Assembly: GCA_016932555.1 (NCBI GenBank) | Contig: JAFGCQ010000004.1 | Coordinates: 990 to 64,989, forward strand | Source: Candidatus Zambryskiibacteriota bacterium | GTDB taxonomy: Bacteria > Patescibacteriota > Minisyncoccia > Phycocordibacterales > WO2-35-19 | Direction: 5' to 3' | Length of the DNA: 64,000 nt | In this document: piece after piece, positions 1,002 through 63,808 of the stretch | Position numbering within the stretch: the first letter of the stretch is position 1 | Layout of the letters: each line of letters starts with the position of its first letter | Notes under the pieces: generated by a model | The model's input: only the letters and a program-made list of their open reading frames with translations | The model's database searches: none | Told to the model about the DNA's origin: nothing | Translations under genes and position numbers: made by a program

Positions 1002-1928
1002 TTATTGAATCTTGCAGACTCTTTGAAGTTCCGCTAGATCTTCTGGGGTGAGATTCAGAGAAGTTTGATTATCGCCGCTTGATAGATAATACATAATCGA
1101 ATCTGGATTATCGACATGCTCTAAACCTAGGGCGTGACCAAATTCGTGTGTTAGAGCTAATATCAAGTCTTTTTTATTGCCATATTGATAAACATTTATC
1201 TCTTGACCATTATATTCGGCTTGGTTGAACTCTAGCCCTCTATCGTATCGTTTATTATAATCTCTGGCTATTTGATTGTATTCAGATGCTTTATTGTTGC
1301 GAGTCTTTAAAAGTGTATTTAATTCAACACCCATTTGGTTTACAGCAGAAGCTTCGGTGTTTAATCTTAAAGCTTCAGAGTTTAAATAATGTCTTTCTGC
1401 TTCCAAAGATTCAAATATGGCTTGTAAGGCACCTGCCTGCGCAGGCAGGCCGCCTCTACTATTCCAATCTTGGACTTCGGCTTCATAAGCTGCTTTGCGA
1501 CTTTGAAATATAGCTAAAGCTTTTTCATAAGCGGAAACTCGGCTTTCATATTGGTTTTTAAAACTATTGAATTCCTGATCCAATTTTTTAAAAACTTCTT
1601 CAATAGCTGAAAGACCAAATTCAGTTCTCTGTTTTTGCAAGGTAGCCAGCTGTCTTTCATCGTAAACTAAATTAACCTTAAAATCGGCTCCCTCTTCGTA
1701 AGAAAAAACATTTTTATTCAAGGCCCTCTCCCAAACTTCCTCGGCTTCAAACAAATAAATTTTAAATTCAGCTTCAGTAATACCAAACTCTGTGTCAAAT
1801 CGACCAATTTCGTATTTAAGAGCCCGATCGCAAGGGTTTAAAGTCTTTTCATAAACAAAGTAGCCTGAAGCGCCGATGAGCGCCAAAAGCGCTATTATCG
1901 CCAAGCCATTTCCCAGTTTTTTTAGCAT
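1002..1928 (-). CDS. Membrane-anchored matrixin-like zinc metalloprotease
   Basis: N-terminal TM helix, coiled-coil middle, HEFGHALGLEH zinc motif followed by an IMY Met-turn. Carries the palindrome insert (GLPAQAG). Confidence 0.75.
   Translation of the reverse strand: MLKKLGNGLAIIALLALIGASGYFVYEKTLNPCDRALKYEIGRFDTEFGITEAEFKIYLFEAEEVWERALNKNVFSYEEGADFKVNLVYDERQLATLQKQRTEFGLSAIEEVFKKLDQEFNSFKNQYESRVSAYEKALAIFQSRKAAYEAEVQDWNSRGGLPAQAGALQAIFESLEAERHYLNSEALRLNTEASAVNQMGVELNTLLKTRNNKASEYNQIARDYNKRYDRGLEFNQAEYNGQEINVYQYGNKKDLILALTHEFGHALGLEHVDNPDSIMYYLSSGDNQTSLNLTPEDLAELQRVCKIQ
1432..1449. repeat. 18-nt perfect GC-rich palindrome CCTGCCTGCGCAGGCAGG, in-frame inside a CDS
   Basis: Sequence equals its own reverse complement. 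Same core at 61388-61407, variant at 35063-35082. Confidence 0.9.
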
Positions 1929-34544: not shown

Positions 34545-35363
34545 TTATAGATTATAGTAGCATAAATCTGATAAATTTTGAAATAAACAAGCTATAGTTA
34601 GAGGTCCGATACCTCCCGGTACTGGTGAAATTGCTTTTAATTTATTAACTAATTCAGTAAAATCAACATCGCCCACTATTCTATCTTTCATCTTGTTTAT
34701 TCCTACATCAATAACTACCTGTTCTGGATTTATAAATTTCTCCGTTATAATACCTGCTTTACCGACAGCTGAAATTAATAAGTCGCATTTTTTTGCAATT
34801 TTTTCCGGATTTTTGGTATTGATGTCACAGCGAAAAACTTTTGCACCTCTTTTTTCAAGCTCATCAGCTATAGGTTTACCAGCTAAAATTGACTGGCCTA
34901 TAACTGCCGCTTTTTTGTCTTTAATTTCAAAATTATAAAAATTTAACAACGATATAACTGCACGTGCTGTGGCTGGAATAATTCCACTTCCTGATACTAG
35001 CCCGTCTACATCTTTTCTTTTATCAATCAAATTTATTATCTTTTCTGAATCAAAACCTTTAGACCTGCCTGCGCAAGCAGGTAATGGTAACTGTACAATA
35101 ATTCCATCTACGCTTTTATCTCCATTTAATTTTTTAATCTCTTCTATTAATTCTTTCTCAGTAATATCTTCGTTAAAATTCTTTAACAAAACTTCTACTC
35201 CGATCTCCTCTCCAAATTTGCGCTTGTTTTTAATATAAATACTTGAATCCGGCCGATCTCCAACTTGCACAATGGCTAAACAAGGCTTGCAGCCCAATTT
35301 TTTTACCCTCCTTATTAAATCTTCTTTAATTTTCTCCTTAACAGGAGCCCCATATAAAATCAT
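34545..35363 (-). CDS. folD: Bifunctional methylene-THF dehydrogenase/methenyl-THF cyclohydrolase
   Basis: VQLPLP and GGIGPLT motifs; carries the palindrome insert ACAGRSKG after LPLP. Confidence 0.9.
   Translation of the reverse strand: MILYGAPVKEKIKEDLIRRVKKLGCKPCLAIVQVGDRPDSSIYIKNKRKFGEEIGVEVLLKNFNEDITEKELIEEIKKLNGDKSVDGIIVQLPLPACAGRSKGFDSEKIINLIDKRKDVDGLVSGSGIIPATARAVISLLNFYNFEIKDKKAAVIGQSILAGKPIADELEKRGAKVFRCDINTKNPEKIAKKCDLLISAVGKAGIITEKFINPEQVVIDVGINKMKDRIVGDVDFTELVNKLKAISPVPGGIGPLTIACLFQNLSDLCYYNL
35063..35082. repeat. 20-nt near-palindrome ACCTGCCTGCGCAAGCAGGT (one mismatch), in-frame in folD
   Basis: Variant of the 1432/61388 palindrome. Confidence 0.85.
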
Positions 35364-49588: not shown

Positions 49589-50692
49589 ATGAGGTACGAG
49601 ATAAAAATAGAAAAATTGCCAAAATCTGAGGTAAAACTGGAAATATCACTTCCAGCCGAATTTTTAGATGAAGCTAGAAAAAAAGCAATAAGGAAATTTT
49701 GCGCTGAATTGGAGGTACCGGGATTCAGAAAGGGTAATGTGCCGGAAAATATCGCCATCGAAAAAGTCGGTGAAAACAAAATATTACAGGAAGCAGTGAA
49801 TATCCTCCTACAGGAACATTTTCCAAAAGTGATAGAACAGGAAAAACTTGATATAATTGGTCGACCGAATATTTCTATAACTAAGCTAGGACTCGGCAGC
49901 CCAACAGAATTTAAGGTTGAGTTCGCTACTCTGCCCGTTTTCAAATTGCCAGATTATAAAGAGATAGCAAAAAAATTAAGAATTGCGAATAACGAATCAA
50001 GAAAAGAAAAAAAGATAGAAGTCACTGATAAAGAGGTTGACGATGTACTTTTACAAATCCGGAAAAATAAGGCTCATTTTGATTGGCATAAAAGTCATCC
50101 AGAAGAGAAATCCGCCCAAGGCGGATCCGCCTTGGACGGAGGCCACAATCATCCAGAAATAAGAGATGAGGATCTGCCGCCACTGGATGATAAATTAGCA
50201 GAGGAAGCTGGTAATTTCAAAAATTTGGATGAACTTAAGGCCAAAATCAAAGAAAACATAAAATTCGAAAAAGAAAATAAAGAAACCGAAAAATTAAGAG
50301 CCGAAATTATGGAAGAATTATTAAAAGCGACCAAAATAGAAGTTCCAGATATATTAATAGAGAGCGAAATCGATAAAGCTTTAGCCCAGATGAAAGGTGA
50401 TATTGGAAGAATAGGTGTTAAATTTGAAGATTATCTAAAGCAGGTCAAAAAAACTGAAGAGGATTTGAAGAAAGAATTAAGTAGTAGCTCAGAAAAAAAA
50501 GCCGGCATCCAGCTTATCTTTAATAAAATTGCCGAAGCTGAAAAACTTGAGCCTAACAAAGAAATTTTAGAAAATGAAATTAAACACCTGATGGAGCATT
50601 ACCCCGACGCCTCCGAACAAAACGCCCGCATTTATGTTACCACCATTCTCCTAAACCAAGAAGTATTAAAACTTTTAGAAAATCAAAAATAA
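49589..50692 (+). CDS. tig: Trigger factor, apparently lacking the PPIase domain
   Basis: N-terminal ribosome-binding domain (GFRKGNVP) joined directly to the C-terminal arm domain through a short linker. Confidence 0.8.
50111..50140. repeat. 30-nt near-perfect GC-rich palindrome, in-frame in tig
   Basis: TCCGCCCAAGGCGGATCCGCCTTGGACGGA. The central 18 nt are perfectly palindromic; one mismatch in the outer arms. Confidence 0.85.
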
Positions 50693-57240: not shown

Positions 57241-57285
57241 CCCCCACTCGGGACTAGTCCTCGACCTCCCCTTGATCAGGGGAGG
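57241..57285 (-). repeat. Family B-related GC-rich element (hairpin CCTCCCCT-TGATC-AGGGGAGG)
   Basis: Shares both ends with 57657-57702; direct repeat flanking the DUF559 gene. Confidence 0.6.
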
Positions 57286-57305: not shown

Positions 57306-57656
57306 ATGACAAGAGTTCATAATATCCGCAAACTTTCAGATCGCAGGAAAGAATTACGAAAAAACCAAACAAAAACCGAAGAAAAACTCTGGTGGTATTT
57401 GAAAGATAAGAGGCTGGGAATTAAATTCAGAAGACAGCACAGTATAGGAGGATATATTTTAGATTTTATATGCAAAGAAAAGAAATTGATTATAGAAATT
57501 GATGGTAGAGTACATTTGAAAAAAGATAATAAAGAATACGATAAAGTTAGAGACAAATATTTTGAAGAGTTAAATTATAAAGTTCTGAGATTTACGAATG
57601 ATGAGGTTGAAAATGGGGTTAAAGAGATTATTGATGTTATAAAGCGGTATCTTTAA
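57306..57656 (+). CDS. DUF559 (Vsr-like) endonuclease-domain protein
   Basis: TEEKLWWYLK...FRRQHSIGGYILDF...IEIDG..H...D..RD..L...GY.VLRF pattern. Confidence 0.8.
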   Translation: MTRVHNIRKLSDRRKELRKNQTKTEEKLWWYLKDKRLGIKFRRQHSIGGYILDFICKEKKLIIEIDGRVHLKKDNKEYDKVRDKYFEELNYKVLRFTNDEVENGVKEIIDVIKRYL

Positions 57657-57770: not shown

Positions 57771-58322
57771 TTATATCAAAATCCTCCCATTATACTCATG
57801 GAACCCGATTTCTCCACTGGTAGCCGTGAAAAAAATATGCTCCATTCCAGCAAAATTTTCGAATCCGCCCCCGAGAAAAATAGTGTTTTCATACTTAAGA
57901 AGGTTTTTATCATAGTTTCCTACACGAGTATCATTATAAAAACCGTGTGTAGCTAAACCTCGTCCACCATGGAATTCACGTTGTTTGTAGGCGTAATTAA
58001 GCGCCATTTTCAAAAAACTGATCACTTCCTTAGGATAACATCCAGAATAAGACATCCACCACACGGCCATCCATCTTCCTCTGGGTCTGAACCTATAAAA
58101 GATAGTGGTTGTACCGGCGGAAAAATCTGAAAGCGGTGTCACACAATAGTGATCTACCACTTTGTAGTTACCGGATACAAAAGTGATTCTTTTGTATCCG
58201 CTAGATTCTATGACTTTAACAGAATTCTTTTTGTTTCCAGCATATCCGTCAAGCATAGCATCGAAGAATACTTTTTCTGCTTTTTGAATGATTTTCTTTC
58301 TCTGTTTGGACTCTAGTTCCAC
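57771..58322 (-). CDS. Hypothetical protein, DUF5680-like (tentative)
   Basis: Pattern ...AMLDGYAGN...W.MSYSG....EVISFLK.AL...FHGGRG recalls DUF5680. From memory only. Confidence 0.4.
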   Translation of the reverse strand: MELESKQRKKIIQKAEKVFFDAMLDGYAGNKKNSVKVIESSGYKRITFVSGNYKVVDHYCVTPLSDFSAGTTTIFYRFRPRGRWMAVWWMSYSGCYPKEVISFLKMALNYAYKQREFHGGRGLATHGFYNDTRVGNYDKNLLKYENTIFLGGGFENFAGMEHIFFTATSGEIGFHEYNGRILI

Positions 58323-58406: not shown

Positions 58407-58451
58407 CCCTCCCCCGTCCAGGGGGAGGGCTACACGAAGTGAGGGGTGGGG
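58407..58451 (+). repeat. Family B GC-rich element abutting the secY stop codon
   Basis: CCCTCCCC-CGTCC-AGGGGGAGGG hairpin plus CTACACGAAGTGAGGGGTGGGG tail. Confidence 0.75.
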
Positions 58452-61153: not shown

Positions 61154-61705
61154 TTAAACTGTTTTCTTACCTTGTTTTCTTCTTATAATTTCATTCTCAT
61201 AACGAAAACCCTTGCCTTTATAAGGTTCCGGTTTTTTTAAGCTTCTTACTTTGGCAGTAAAAGCTCCGACTAACTCTTTATCAAAACCAAATATAGTAAT
61301 GAGATTCTTTTCAGCTTTTACTTCCAAGCCGTCAGGGATTAGAACTTCTACCGGATGGGAAAAACCCAGAGAAAGAATCAACTTATTGCCTGCCTGCGCA
61401 GGCAGGCCATTAACTTGGGATTTAAAACCTACGCCTTCTAATACTAATTTTTTTTCAAAACCATCATTAACTCCTTTTATCATGTTTTTTATATGAGAGG
61501 CATAAGTACCCCATAGAGCCTTAGTTTGATTATTTTCTTTGGGTATAGAAAGATTGATATGATTTTCTTCAATTTTAATTACTACATCATCACGAAATTT
61601 TCTTTCCAATAAACCTTTTGGACCTTTCACAAAAAAAACGTTATCTTTTAAGGAGACTTCTGTACCTGGTAGTATCTTTATTTCTTTTTTACCTATTCTT
61701 GACAT
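61154..61705 (-). CDS. rplF: 50S ribosomal protein L6
   Basis: MSRIGKK start; two L6 repeats; carries the insert GLPAQAG before [12 protein letters not shown]. Confidence 0.9.
61388..61407. repeat. 20-nt perfect palindrome GCCTGCCTGCGCAGGCAGGC, in-frame in rplF
   Basis: Self-complementary; same core as 1432-1449. Confidence 0.9.
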
Positions 61706-62364: not shown

Positions 62365-62384
62365 CGTCCGTCAGCCGACGGACG
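62365..62384 (-). other. Stem-loop between the RT stop and the rpsN start
   Basis: CGTCCGTC-AGCC-GACGGACG. Confidence 0.5.
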
Positions 62385-62419: not shown

Positions 62420-63424
62420 TCAAGCGCTTTGCTGTCTTGAGATAACAACGAAGCGTTTACCGTGTCTATTTTTTGGAATGTTTCTATTTAGTTTTTGCAG
62501 TAGTTTAATTTTTAAATCTCTGGAACGGCAGTGATGTAAAAGACCGTTATAAGATGAGAAATTTTTGTCAGTCACCCTATTAAATATTCTTCTTTTAGTT
62601 TTAGTTCTCAAAACTCTATGGTACGGGAAGCAAATATAACCCAAATAATCGATGCCGCTGGCATATGTTTTAAGGATAATTTTTTCAGGGTGGATTTTTA
62701 GCTTCAAATTCTGCCAGCAAAAATCTCGAATCTTAGGTATGCAAGATTCCAGAAAATTTTTATCAGGATGCATCAAAACAAAATCATCAGTATATCTAAT
62801 ATAGCCCTTTACTTTTAAATCATGCTTCACGAACTGATCAAATTTGTTCATAAAAATATTGGCAAATATTTGAGAAGTCAGATTGCCAAGAGGTATGCCG
62901 CAATTGAAACTTTCAACAATGTCCTTGGTTAGGATGATAAGCTCTTTATCAAAAGTCTTTTCCTCTAATATCCGCAGAAGCTTATTATGATCGACAGATT
63001 CAAAAAACTTTCTTATATCCAACTTCAGCACCCAGATAGTTTTGCTGTTATTTCGGGAAATTTTGAGTCCTATTTTGTGGAGTCTTTTAACCGCAGCATG
63101 AGTGCCTTTATATTTTCTGGAAGACCAAGAGTCAAAGATAAATTTTTTATCCCACATTGGCTCTATGACTCTGATTATGGCATGGTGCAAAAGTCTGTCT
63201 CTAACGCTGGCTTTGTTAATGTGCCTCCTTTTGGGATCACTTATATAGAAAGAAAAATATCCGCCATGCCTGTAATTACCGCTTTTCAAATCCTCATGCA
63301 GTTTGAAAATGTTATCTTCCAAACCAAGCTCGAATTCCGCCACATCTTTCTTGCCTCGCTTATCCTTGCGAAACTCAGCCCAAGCGTCGAAGAGATTTTT
63401 TAATGAAATAATTTTTTCAAACAT
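62420..63424 (-). CDS. Diversity-generating-retroelement-type reverse transcriptase
   Basis: RT motifs 1-7 readable: DPKRRHINKASVRDRLLHH, LKLDIRKFFESVDH, GIPLGNLTSQIFANIF, YTDDFVL, GIDYLGY. Start set at MFEKIISLKNLFDAW. Confidence 0.85.
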   Translation of the reverse strand: MFEKIISLKNLFDAWAEFRKDKRGKKDVAEFELGLEDNIFKLHEDLKSGNYRHGGYFSFYISDPKRRHINKASVRDRLLHHAIIRVIEPMWDKKFIFDSWSSRKYKGTHAAVKRLHKIGLKISRNNSKTIWVLKLDIRKFFESVDHNKLLRILEEKTFDKELIILTKDIVESFNCGIPLGNLTSQIFANIFMNKFDQFVKHDLKVKGYIRYTDDFVLMHPDKNFLESCIPKIRDFCWQNLKLKIHPEKIILKTYASGIDYLGYICFPYHRVLRTKTKRRIFNRVTDKNFSSYNGLLHHCRSRDLKIKLLQKLNRNIPKNRHGKRFVVISRQQSA

Positions 63425-63808
63425 ATGAATAGAAACAACAATAATAAAACAGCGGAGCAAACACCATTCTTTCAAGCAGTTTATAAATTGTATCTATCAT
63501 GGTATGTCAGATGCGGACAACTGCCAAAGAAAGACAGGTTTACCATTGGACAGAAGACGGAAAACTTGCTTCTGGAAATTCTCCTGTTAACGGTGACTGC
63601 CTACCACACAAGCAGCTTGGATTTAAAGAGACAATCATTACTCAAAGCCAATACTACTCTTGAATGCGTTAAAATCAGCATTAGATTGGCAAAGGACATC
63701 AAAGCTCTGGAGCAGCATTGGTACATAGATTATCAGAGAAGAATCCAAGAGATGGGCAAGATGCTCGGCGGCTGGATTGCCAGCACTTACAACAAAACGG
63801 GCAAGTAA
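63425..63808 (+). CDS. avd: Avd-like four-helix-bundle accessory protein
   Basis: LPKKDRFTIGQKTENLLLEIL ... IQEMGKMLGGWI pattern; adjacent to the RT. Confidence 0.75.
   Translation: MNRNNNNKTAEQTPFFQAVYKLYLSWYVRCGQLPKKDRFTIGQKTENLLLEILLLTVTAYHTSSLDLKRQSLLKANTTLECVKISIRLAKDIKALEQHWYIDYQRRIQEMGKMLGGWIASTYNKTGK

Follow-up and report, generated by a model that had tools for sequence, protein, structure and literature searches.

A probable dispersed 18-bp palindromic insertion in folD and other genes of Patescibacteria

Rickettsia palindromic elements (RPEs) are reportedly about 100-150 bp long, confined to one genus, divergent from copy to copy, and inserted in frame in coding genes. The organellar hairpin elements, in turn, include the 18-nt PstI palindromes of Neurospora. 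The yeast GC42 cluster is 42 nt long, flanked by a duplicated AG target and mostly intergenic (PMC4478555), and GC-rich hairpin elements of other organelles, among them the sponge RHE, offer a further comparison (PMC2800124). Here we describe an 18-nt perfect palindrome, CCTGCCTGC directly followed by GCAGGCAGG (PAL for short; two abutting 9-nt arms with no spacer), which came to light in the folD gene of a Candidatus Zambryskiibacteriota bacterium, within a 64-kb window (64,000 nt of contig JAFGCQ010000004.1; all window positions given here count from its first letter). The folD segment is probably one copy of a dispersed 18-bp palindrome that was inserted as DNA at many unrelated sites in Patescibacteria.

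In its behavior, PAL is nearest to the RPEs and the organellar GC-rich hairpin elements, but is far shorter and more uniform than either. Like the RPEs, it is a palindromic repeat found in frame in unrelated, even essential genes, contributes a peptide that is tolerated at the protein surface, and has an origin at the nucleotide level; unlike them, it is only 18 bp long, nearly invariant, spread across a phylum-level radiation, free of target duplication, and linked to a nuclease cassette. In-frame insertion into unrelated coding genes is seen in folD, rplF and a peptidase gene of the window, whereas neither the length of the RPEs nor homology to an RPE family is, and Rfam scans of 23 PAL loci at gathering thresholds returned ordinary tRNAs only, with no match over PAL. 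The yeast GC clusters and organellar hairpins resemble PAL as short GC-rich, hairpin-forming repeats that multiply in very AT-rich genomes by an unknown mobilizing mechanism, and in that either the stem is constrained or the copies are young. An AG duplication, a length of 30-50 nt and a mostly intergenic location characterize the GC clusters, whereas PAL has 18 nt, brings no duplication and is often intragenic.

On the plus strand, positions 35063-35082 read ACCTGCCTGCGCAAGCAGGT, within folD. Only the inner 18 nt form the palindrome; the first-pass annotation of this DNA had counted the outer A and T as well, but these are flank bases. Read on the minus strand, the copy encodes P95-A96-C97-A98-G99-R100 in the context LPLP-ACAGRS-KGFD (coding strand CCT GCT TGC GCA GGC AGG TCT, that is, P95 A96 C97 A98 G99 R100 S101), such that its position and the coding-strand translation bear out the earlier observation that the folD copy is read in a frame of its own. 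The identity of the host gene is clear. Both FolD domains (PF00763 and PF02882) are precomputed for the identical database protein P0001, the product matches solved FolD chains (E=5.2e-51 to 3p2o; 5e-45 to 1b0a, residues 5-268), and the FolD motifs QLPLP and KDVDG are both there, with Q91, L92, P93 and D118 invariant. The spacing between these two motifs is six residues greater than in all 119 homologues, but the gene is FolD despite this departure.

In an alignment of the 120 best matches, exactly six codons are added in this folD gene, and all 119 other homologues have a gap there, six columns wide, between LPLP and the following K/E-x-F/L-D; E. coli FolD (1b0a) is aligned with the same six-residue gap. 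The excess of residues noticed at first reading is thus real, but it amounts to exactly six, not to the 7-8 estimated by eye. The segment itself occurs in none of the 119 homologues, nor in the solved FolD structures, as expected of an insertion and not of a conserved peptide. In an AlphaFold2 model built from 63 sequences (mean pLDDT 95.2), residues 96-98, all within the insert, are the only stretch below 50, and the insert falls between strand 87-91 and helix 106-110. According to this model, the insert is a loop that the prediction cannot place, in line with the loop location that had been suggested for it. It starts five residues past the invariant Gln91 of QLPLP, along the chain not far from the substrate pocket. 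The enzyme has very probably kept its function, with the six residues as a surface loop behind the QLPLP strand.

The single arm mismatch that had been noted in the folD copy maps to plus-strand position 35076 (G>A). On the coding strand, this is a GCC>GCT change in Ala96, synonymous and in the GC>AT direction, which leaves a G.U pair in the sense RNA (hairpin of -8.3 kcal/mol versus -11.0 kcal/mol for perfect PAL).

The window, with a G+C content of about 35%, contains two more copies, in rplF and in a metallopeptidase gene (Table 1), whereas dinucleotide shuffles of the window give an expectation of 0 palindrome matches. Both copies are perfect (CCTGCCTGCGCAGGCAGG) and, as already recognized, are read in the LPAQAG frame. 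The rplF product, ribosomal protein uL6, has 183 aa; of its 119 nearest homologues, nearly all have 177 aa and only one contains LPAQAG; the insert faces a six-residue gap in the uL6 chains of the Protein Data Bank (PDB) and lies within a beta-turn. The nearest relative for which DNA is available (L147, 925-1545; uL6 77% identical) has the empty site AAT GGA AAC. A JGI contig with a less similar uL6 (L146, 29-580; 72% identical) carries an exact PAL in the same Gly codon (GTC GG, then C...GG, then G TAT), such that either the same tolerated beta-turn was hit twice or PAL was conserved at the nucleotide level. In homologues of the peptidase, WNxRGGAP/L is followed directly by the next helix, whereas the window protein has six residues more at this point, and the LPAQAG peptide was found in 0 of 150 library representatives of this peptidase. 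By these sequence comparisons, the rplF and peptidase copies, like the folD copy, are private six-codon insertions.

For the distribution of PAL, we scanned genomes, one per species, for exact matches to the 18-mer and fetched loci of about 8 kb; the frame, flank, taxon and copy figures given below are samples from the matches listed, not censuses. The exact 18-mer occurs at at least 120 genome loci, of which 71 are named as Patescibacteria lineages, including WWE3, Microgenomates, Paceibacterota/Parcubacteria, Saccharibacteria, Dojkabacteria and others. The remaining listed matches come from Bacteroidota, some metagenome-assembled genomes (MAGs) labelled Gammaproteobacteria, and high-GC genomes where chance is a possible explanation. 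In the Bacteroidota MAGs, longer repeats that are specific to a genome have the 18-mer at their core, whereas in genomes of the candidate phyla radiation (CPR) it is solitary, and the flanks of PAL are unrelated between copies. Other PAL-bearing proteins recognized by eye include EF-Ts, NusB and a pilin. An all-against-all search of the ORFs from 121 loci yielded common housekeeping families only as recurring neighbors of PAL. Among viral contigs, there were 25 matches, mostly at 50-67% G+C, where chance or another repeat may explain the 18-mer. Two of these contigs, of about 60% G+C (L131, 5704-6377, and L132, 5599-6272), each carry two PAL copies 656 nt apart with mutually reverse-complementary flanks (PAL-tgtttcgcggg ... 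cccgcgaaaca-PAL), and this pair resembles a longer element that has inverted repeats containing PAL at its two ends.

A second GC-rich palindrome, TCCGCCAGCTGGCGGA, lies 40-200 nt from PAL in five loci from different taxa (L066, 2079; L097, 7450; L105, 4962; L107, 5737; L112, 5470), which suggests intergenic clusters of several hairpin families.

The mode of insertion can be read from loci that contain both a filled and an empty version of one site. In seven such loci (L027, L110, L037, L094, L081, L092 and L133), exactly 18 bp were added and nothing was duplicated. In L027, for example, the filled site reads GCCGGGTCG, PAL, TCTAATGGTAGGAC and lies about 300 nt from GCCGGGTCGTCTAATGGTAGGAC in the intact tRNA-Gln; reduced to the junction, GCCGGGTCG-PAL-TCTAATGG stands against the empty GCCGGGTCGTCTAATGG. 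Further pairs were found at other tRNA-Gln loci, in tRNA-Thr 5' fragments and inside tandem repeats. In the Saccharibacteria MAG L094 (4643 and 6119), PAL sits between nucleotides 9 and 10 of duplicated tRNA 5' fragments, one of them 17 nt upstream of an intact tRNA-Thr with no ORF between, an arrangement like that at tRNA-Gln but with a different tRNA.

When the bases next to 89 copies in low-GC loci were classed as purine (R) or pyrimidine (Y), we counted 51 RY, 21 RR, 17 YY and no YR, which fits a purine directly 5' of the insert on at least one strand (predicted 44/22/22/0). No wider target motif was found in the flanks of the low-GC copies. Two refinements were tried and rejected: a target motif resembling the tRNA-Gln site (mean of 5.0 versus 4.5 matches of 14, a purine/pyrimidine effect only), and an extension of the hairpin by the outer flank bases, where complementarity was at chance (29/88 overall; 29/51 of the copies with R on the left and Y on the right). 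For folD, the junction is not placeable to the base: with a 2-nt register ambiguity, the ancestor had either TTA followed by TCT (LPLS), which the purine-rule insertion model implies, or TTA CCT. The empty site expected from the sequence would be either CAGTTACCATTA joined to TCTAAAGG or TTACCT joined to AAAGG, and LPLS is found in a few FolD homologues. PAL would have landed between folD codons, to be read as PACAGR in the loop after the QLPLP strand.

PAL is free of stop codons in all three frames, which read LPAQA(G), PACAGR and CLRRQ. Together with the length of 18 nt, a multiple of three, this means that the reading frame is never broken, so being in frame is automatic and no evidence of selection. 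The choice of frame, in contrast, is informative. Taking the longest ORF spanning each copy as the measure of coding status, we found 35 copies read as LPAQAG, 8 as PACAGR and 1 as CLRRQ among the low-GC loci listed with a spanning ORF of at least 150 aa, compared to 15.5, 8.6 and 19.9 expected from R-Y steps at the three codon boundaries of the window genes (p=6e-10), indicating that insertions reading Cys-Leu-Arg-Arg-Gln have been lost. The PACAGR frame of folD occurs at about the expected rate, and in the LPAQAG frame the split codon is mostly GAY or GGY, which preserves the Asp or Gly that was there before. The bias in frame and the lack of stops together indicate that PAL is translated when it lies in mRNAs. 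The use of all three frames, together with copies in non-coding DNA, tRNA fragments and tandem repeats, strongly supports the nucleotide-level origin proposed at first reading from two frames: PAL is defined by its nucleotide sequence and then filtered by the peptide that is tolerated.

Diverged copies are scarce. Across 673 kb of low-GC loci, only four one-mismatch copies accompany the exact ones, two or three mismatches do not occur, and the PAL peptides are never encoded by diverged, non-PAL DNA. If copies decayed neutrally at a steady rate in an AT-biased genome, degraded ones should be plentiful; their near absence means that the copies are either young and purged, as mildly harmful insertions usually are, or constrained, and it fits young, mildly deleterious insertions that are continually made and purged. 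That the folD copy is an older, decaying one, as first suggested, is plausible given that most copies elsewhere are perfect, but the basis is one synonymous substitution, and the copy is at most slightly older than average.

Comparison with two further classes of repeats draws on these results. The accepted model for repetitive extragenic palindromes (REPs) is hairpin movement without target duplication, and MITEs (miniature inverted-repeat transposable elements) have terminal inverted repeats around an internal segment, measure at least about 50 bp, produce target-site duplications and are presumed to be moved in trans. PAL shares with the MITEs the character of a non-autonomous short repeat presumed to be mobilized in trans, but the seven filled and empty loci show no target duplication and no longer parent bounded by PAL arms was seen in the CPR loci. 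With the REPs, PAL has in common that both are small GC-rich palindromes with many dispersed copies. REPs are species-specific palindromes of extragenic DNA that bear a head of either GTAG or CGTC (PMC3733652). PAL, in contrast, is headless, with only the -1 purine on one strand shared by the 89 low-GC copies; it is often intragenic, given that long ORFs contain the three window copies without exception and at least 44 copies of other low-GC loci; and it is identical across classes. No RAYT/Y1 transposase family recurs in the 8-kb loci and the 64-kb window.

The gene most consistently linked to PAL came from the tRNA-Gln sites. In five genome loci, PAL lies between nucleotides 10 and 11 of a tRNA-Gln 5' fragment beside an intact tRNA-Gln, often with a small ORF between the two. 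A metagenome scan with PAL fused to the tRNA-Gln D arm (PAL+TCTAATGG) yielded 72 loci, usually with the following layout: tRNA-Gln nucleotides 1-10, PAL, tRNA-Gln nucleotides 11 to about 24, an ORF of about 82 aa starting with MWYVYIL, its stop codon, and the intact tRNA-Gln. The ORF is a GIY-YIG catalytic domain and nothing else (PF01541, E=1.4e-14). In 45 of the 72 loci, the distance between this ORF and PAL is no more than 120 nt, and several of the others are cut by contig ends. In a second layout, an intact tRNA-Gln and the GIY-YIG ORF are followed by a full tRNA-Gln with two inserts: PAL between nucleotides 10 and 11, and another PAL, or a variant with two mismatches, that interrupts the anticodon loop in the region of the canonical 37/38 intron position or exactly there. 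Such double-insert copies are found in L177 (800-890), L184 (minus strand, approximately 1650-1750), L181 and L209, the last two having the variant, and removing both inserts in silico gives a normal tRNA-Gln. Deleting PAL in silico restored a callable tRNA-Gln in 12 copies, and for 8 of these 12 a second tRNA-Gln with the same anticodon was called on the same contig.

The link also holds in the reverse direction. A search starting from the protein showed that 8 of 23 close homologues have LPAQAG, PACAGR or a near variant in a miscalled N-terminal extension, and all five further homologues that were looked up have an exact PAL 18-25 nt upstream of the ATG, in differing gene neighborhoods, with an intact tRNA-Gln called after the stop in four of the five contigs, the fifth of which ends within the tRNA-Gln. 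The early gene starts are an annotation artefact, arising because the palindrome is stop-free. Records with such starts, which translate the tRNA fragment and PAL, include P0241, P0242, P0246, P0249, P0250, P0254, P0255 and P0263; one example reads MPGRLPAQAGLMVGLS-MWYVY, and one record is named 'Excinuclease ABC subunit C'. We conclude that one family of tRNA-targeting GIY-YIG cassettes has PAL as a constant part. In folD, by contrast, PAL is solo and lacks the cassette layout; its right flank, TCTAAAGG, is weakly like the tRNA site TCTAATGG (9/14 overall), a level also reached by controls.

Related arrangements occur as well. In L225 (573-980), a distant small GIY-YIG ORF follows tRNA-Ser, with the last 13 nt of the tRNA repeated after the ORF and no PAL, and in L009 (6567-6918) another distant small GIY-YIG ORF directly adjoins tRNA-Ser; in these bacteria, tRNA genes in general seem to be the targets of small GIY-YIG cassettes. 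In L037 (3560-3940; Parcubacteria), the interval from the PAL-bearing tRNA-Gln fragment to the intact tRNA-Gln is occupied not by the GIY-YIG ORF but by a Cys-rich ORF of 106 aa (CMDCG...DH...CANCH). Neither Pfam nor NCBIfam gives a match for it, and the HNH-like label that it suggests by eye is unconfirmed.

GIY-YIG homing enzymes described so far possess a DNA-binding domain and are not known to leave dispersed palindromes behind. The PAL cassette resembles their free-standing cassettes in comprising a small ORF in or beside a highly conserved gene, with duplicated pieces of the target, but here the catalytic domain of about 82 aa stands alone and PAL is always included. The mini-introns of archaeal tRNAs (Thermoproteales) are tens of nucleotides long and near-identical, occupy several tRNA positions, form a bulge-helix-bulge and are spliced. 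Like these, PAL is a very short insert at tRNA positions including the anticodon loop, but it is bacterial, the PAL-bearing tRNA copy usually lies beside an intact one, and instead of a bulge-helix-bulge PAL forms a bulge-free, perfect stem of 7 bp that is closed by a 4-nt loop, between flanks that vary by site.

For how PAL moves, we infer the following scheme. The source or engine of PAL would be the mobile cassette with a GIY-YIG nuclease at tRNA-Gln, present throughout these bacteria; the nuclease or a companion enzyme would cut DNA at low sequence specificity; and the palindrome, excised or copied as a hairpin or a blunt self-complementary duplex, would be joined into the break. Which copies survive then depends on tolerance of the six extra residues. 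That the cassette is the source, and that the GIY-YIG nuclease or a partner makes low-specificity breaks joined by the palindrome, is a possibility that we advance tentatively, well short of even confidence. We regard as doubtful the fuller proposal that no mobile DNA smaller than PAL has been seen so far and that its movement in trans is due to a catalytic-domain-only GIY-YIG nuclease with its tRNA-Gln cassette, the pair being active across Patescibacteria and adding six-residue loops to FolD, uL6 and EF-Ts, with peptide selection sorting the copies. Several observations weigh against the scheme. There is no GIY-YIG gene and no tRNA-Gln in the 64-kb window; the 8-kb loci, if the tRNA-Gln cassette is set aside, have no recurring gene family in the vicinity of PAL; and PAL sites elsewhere have no likeness to the tRNA-Gln site. 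In addition, L146, with 72% identity, shares the uL6 position of PAL while relatives at 77% lack it, and the near absence of decayed copies would also fit selection on the PAL sequence itself.

The last two points lead to an account in which PAL is a functional palindromic site under selection, either a binding site for a dimeric DNA-binding protein or an mRNA or DNA hairpin with a regulatory or structural role, of which copies, the one in folD among them, would be recruited for their usefulness. The parS, Noc and matS sites for DNA-binding proteins can lie inside genes, and copies that are nearly always perfect, an 18-mer identical across many Patescibacteria classes, an L6 codon that harbors exact PAL in both of two lineages, a folD substitution that preserves a G.U pair, and the fairly even spacing of the copies in the window (starts at 1432, 35064 and 61389) all fit such a role. 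The positions, however, are not conserved (0/119 FolD, 1/119 L6 and 0/150 peptidase representatives), copies lie in pseudo-tRNA fragments, tandem repeats and unrelated genes, the strong peptide-frame filter means that copies burden proteins, and the creation of a site by an 18-bp insertion would still require an insertion mechanism. Moreover, uptake signals and parS-like sites arise by substitution and are positionally conserved, whereas all window copies are insertions absent from relatives, and we consider a selected site improbable. Still further down the scale, an assembly or library artefact or a convergent peptide motif deserves almost no credence: an 18-nt stop-free insert keeps any frame automatically, so that being in frame proves nothing by itself, but about 200 contigs share this 18-mer, and they stem from numerous projects and assemblers and include cultured isolates; an artefact would produce neither the flank rule nor the frame bias, and the three frames and non-coding copies exclude a peptide motif.

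Two other accounts accept insertion but change the agent. PAL might be a hairpin of the REP kind that an HUH/Y1 transposase (RAYT or IS200/IS605-type) mobilizes in single-stranded form, with excision at the hairpin foot and insertion 3' of a short target on one strand, a route that would explain exact insertion without target duplication, the stable hairpin, the clustering with other GC-rich palindromes in intergenic DNA, and the one-sided purine rule, the absence of YR among 89 copies and the class counts being consistent with a strand-specific target. We nevertheless think it unlikely, on a par with a selected site, given that there is no conserved GTAG/CGTC head and no guide sequence beside the hairpin, flanks have nothing in common, genes contain many of the copies, the loci show no recurrent family resembling a transposase, and the sole consistently linked gene encodes a GIY-YIG nuclease. 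That linkage is shared by the remaining account, to which we give a slim but slightly better chance: PAL as an immobile repair scar, left where breaks made by the GIY-YIG or another nuclease were patched with filler copied from the palindrome beside the nuclease gene, such that each solo PAL would mark an earlier cleavage. PAL is a constant neighbor of this gene, the copies beside it occupy fixed tRNA-Gln positions (between nucleotides 10 and 11 and in the anticodon loop), and the symmetry of PAL, to go by its sequence, could reflect a blunt break whose two 3' ends were each extended by an identical 9 nt. However, no homology between break site and cassette is available to guide templated repair, partial fillers are absent, every insert being exact and of full length, and in L037 the unrelated Cys-rich ORF sits in the place of the GIY-YIG gene.

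Other hairpins and genes of the window are listed in Table 1. The reverse transcriptase (RT) and the bAvd-like accessory protein are encoded in head-to-head overlapping ORFs and are the core pair of a diversity-generating retroelement; they lie directly beside ribosomal protein genes, are cut by the window end, and have a GC-rich hairpin just 3' of the RT gene. This pair was considered as the engine of PAL and rejected, nothing linking it to PAL. Between adk-like and secY-like ORFs (recognized by eye) are the DUF559 ORF and the ORF with the weak DUF5680 match, bracketed by two GC-rich hairpins; similar CCCTCTCC...GGAGAGGG hairpins flank PAL in L015 and L107. In the trigger factor gene, overlapping GC-rich palindromes occupy the linker between Trigger_N and Trigger_C and may be another palindromic insert or the product of local template switching. 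One of these, CCAAGGCGGATCCGCCTTGG (50116-50135), is absent from all other fetched loci and was rejected as a second palindrome family.

Table 1. Features of the 64-kb window discussed in the text
Feature	Position	Strand	Remarks
Membrane-anchored Peptidase_M10-like protein, 308 aa	1002..1928	-	HEFGH motif; host of third PAL copy
Perfect PAL, read RGG-LPAQAG-AL	1432..1449		In M10-like metallopeptidase gene; gap in all aligned homologues
folD, bifunctional methylene-THF dehydrogenase / methenyl-THF cyclohydrolase	34545..35363	-	Pfam, PDB matches, model
PAL copy in folD, CCTGCCTGCGCAaGCAGG on plus strand	35064..35081		One substitution at 35076
Overlapping palindromes ATCCGCCcaaGGCGGAT and CCAAGGCGGATCCGCCTTGG	50110..50135		GC-rich; in trigger factor gene
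Hairpin CCTCCCCTTGATCAGGGGAGG	57265..57285		GC-rich
DUF559 ORF	57306..57656		Vsr-like endonuclease fold
ORF with DUF5680 match	57771..58322		Weak match, below cutoff
Hairpin CCCTCCCCCGTCCAGGGGGAGGG	58407..58429		GC-rich
rplF (ribosomal protein uL6), 183 aa	61154..61705	-	Homologue and PDB comparison
Perfect PAL, read LPAQAG	61389..61406		In rplF; six-residue gap vs PDB L6 chains
Hairpin CGTCCGTCAGCCGACGGACG	62365..62384		GC-rich
Reverse transcriptase	62420..63475	-	RVT_1, E=1e-24
bAvd-like accessory protein	63425..63808	+	PF22296, E=2e-16

We place PAL among the small palindromic selfish repeats that invade coding sequence. In the searchable full-text literature, we found no paper with the sequence, the peptide or the cassette, which is no proof that PAL is undescribed. 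PAL accounts for puzzling six-residue indels in CPR proteins and for N-terminal extensions such as ...RLPAQAGLMVG... on miscalled genes, and it calls for caution in alignment- and structure-based annotation, where PAL inserts are not to be taken for lineage-specific functional loops. It is also a ready marker of recent insertion events in uncultured lineages, and the mini GIY-YIG nuclease and the 18-bp cruciform-forming palindrome are a candidate enzyme-substrate pair that is specific and testable. If the proposed reading is true, PAL would represent selfish DNA at its lower limit, short and stop-free, such that it may enter essential genes of tiny, gene-dense genomes without killing the host.

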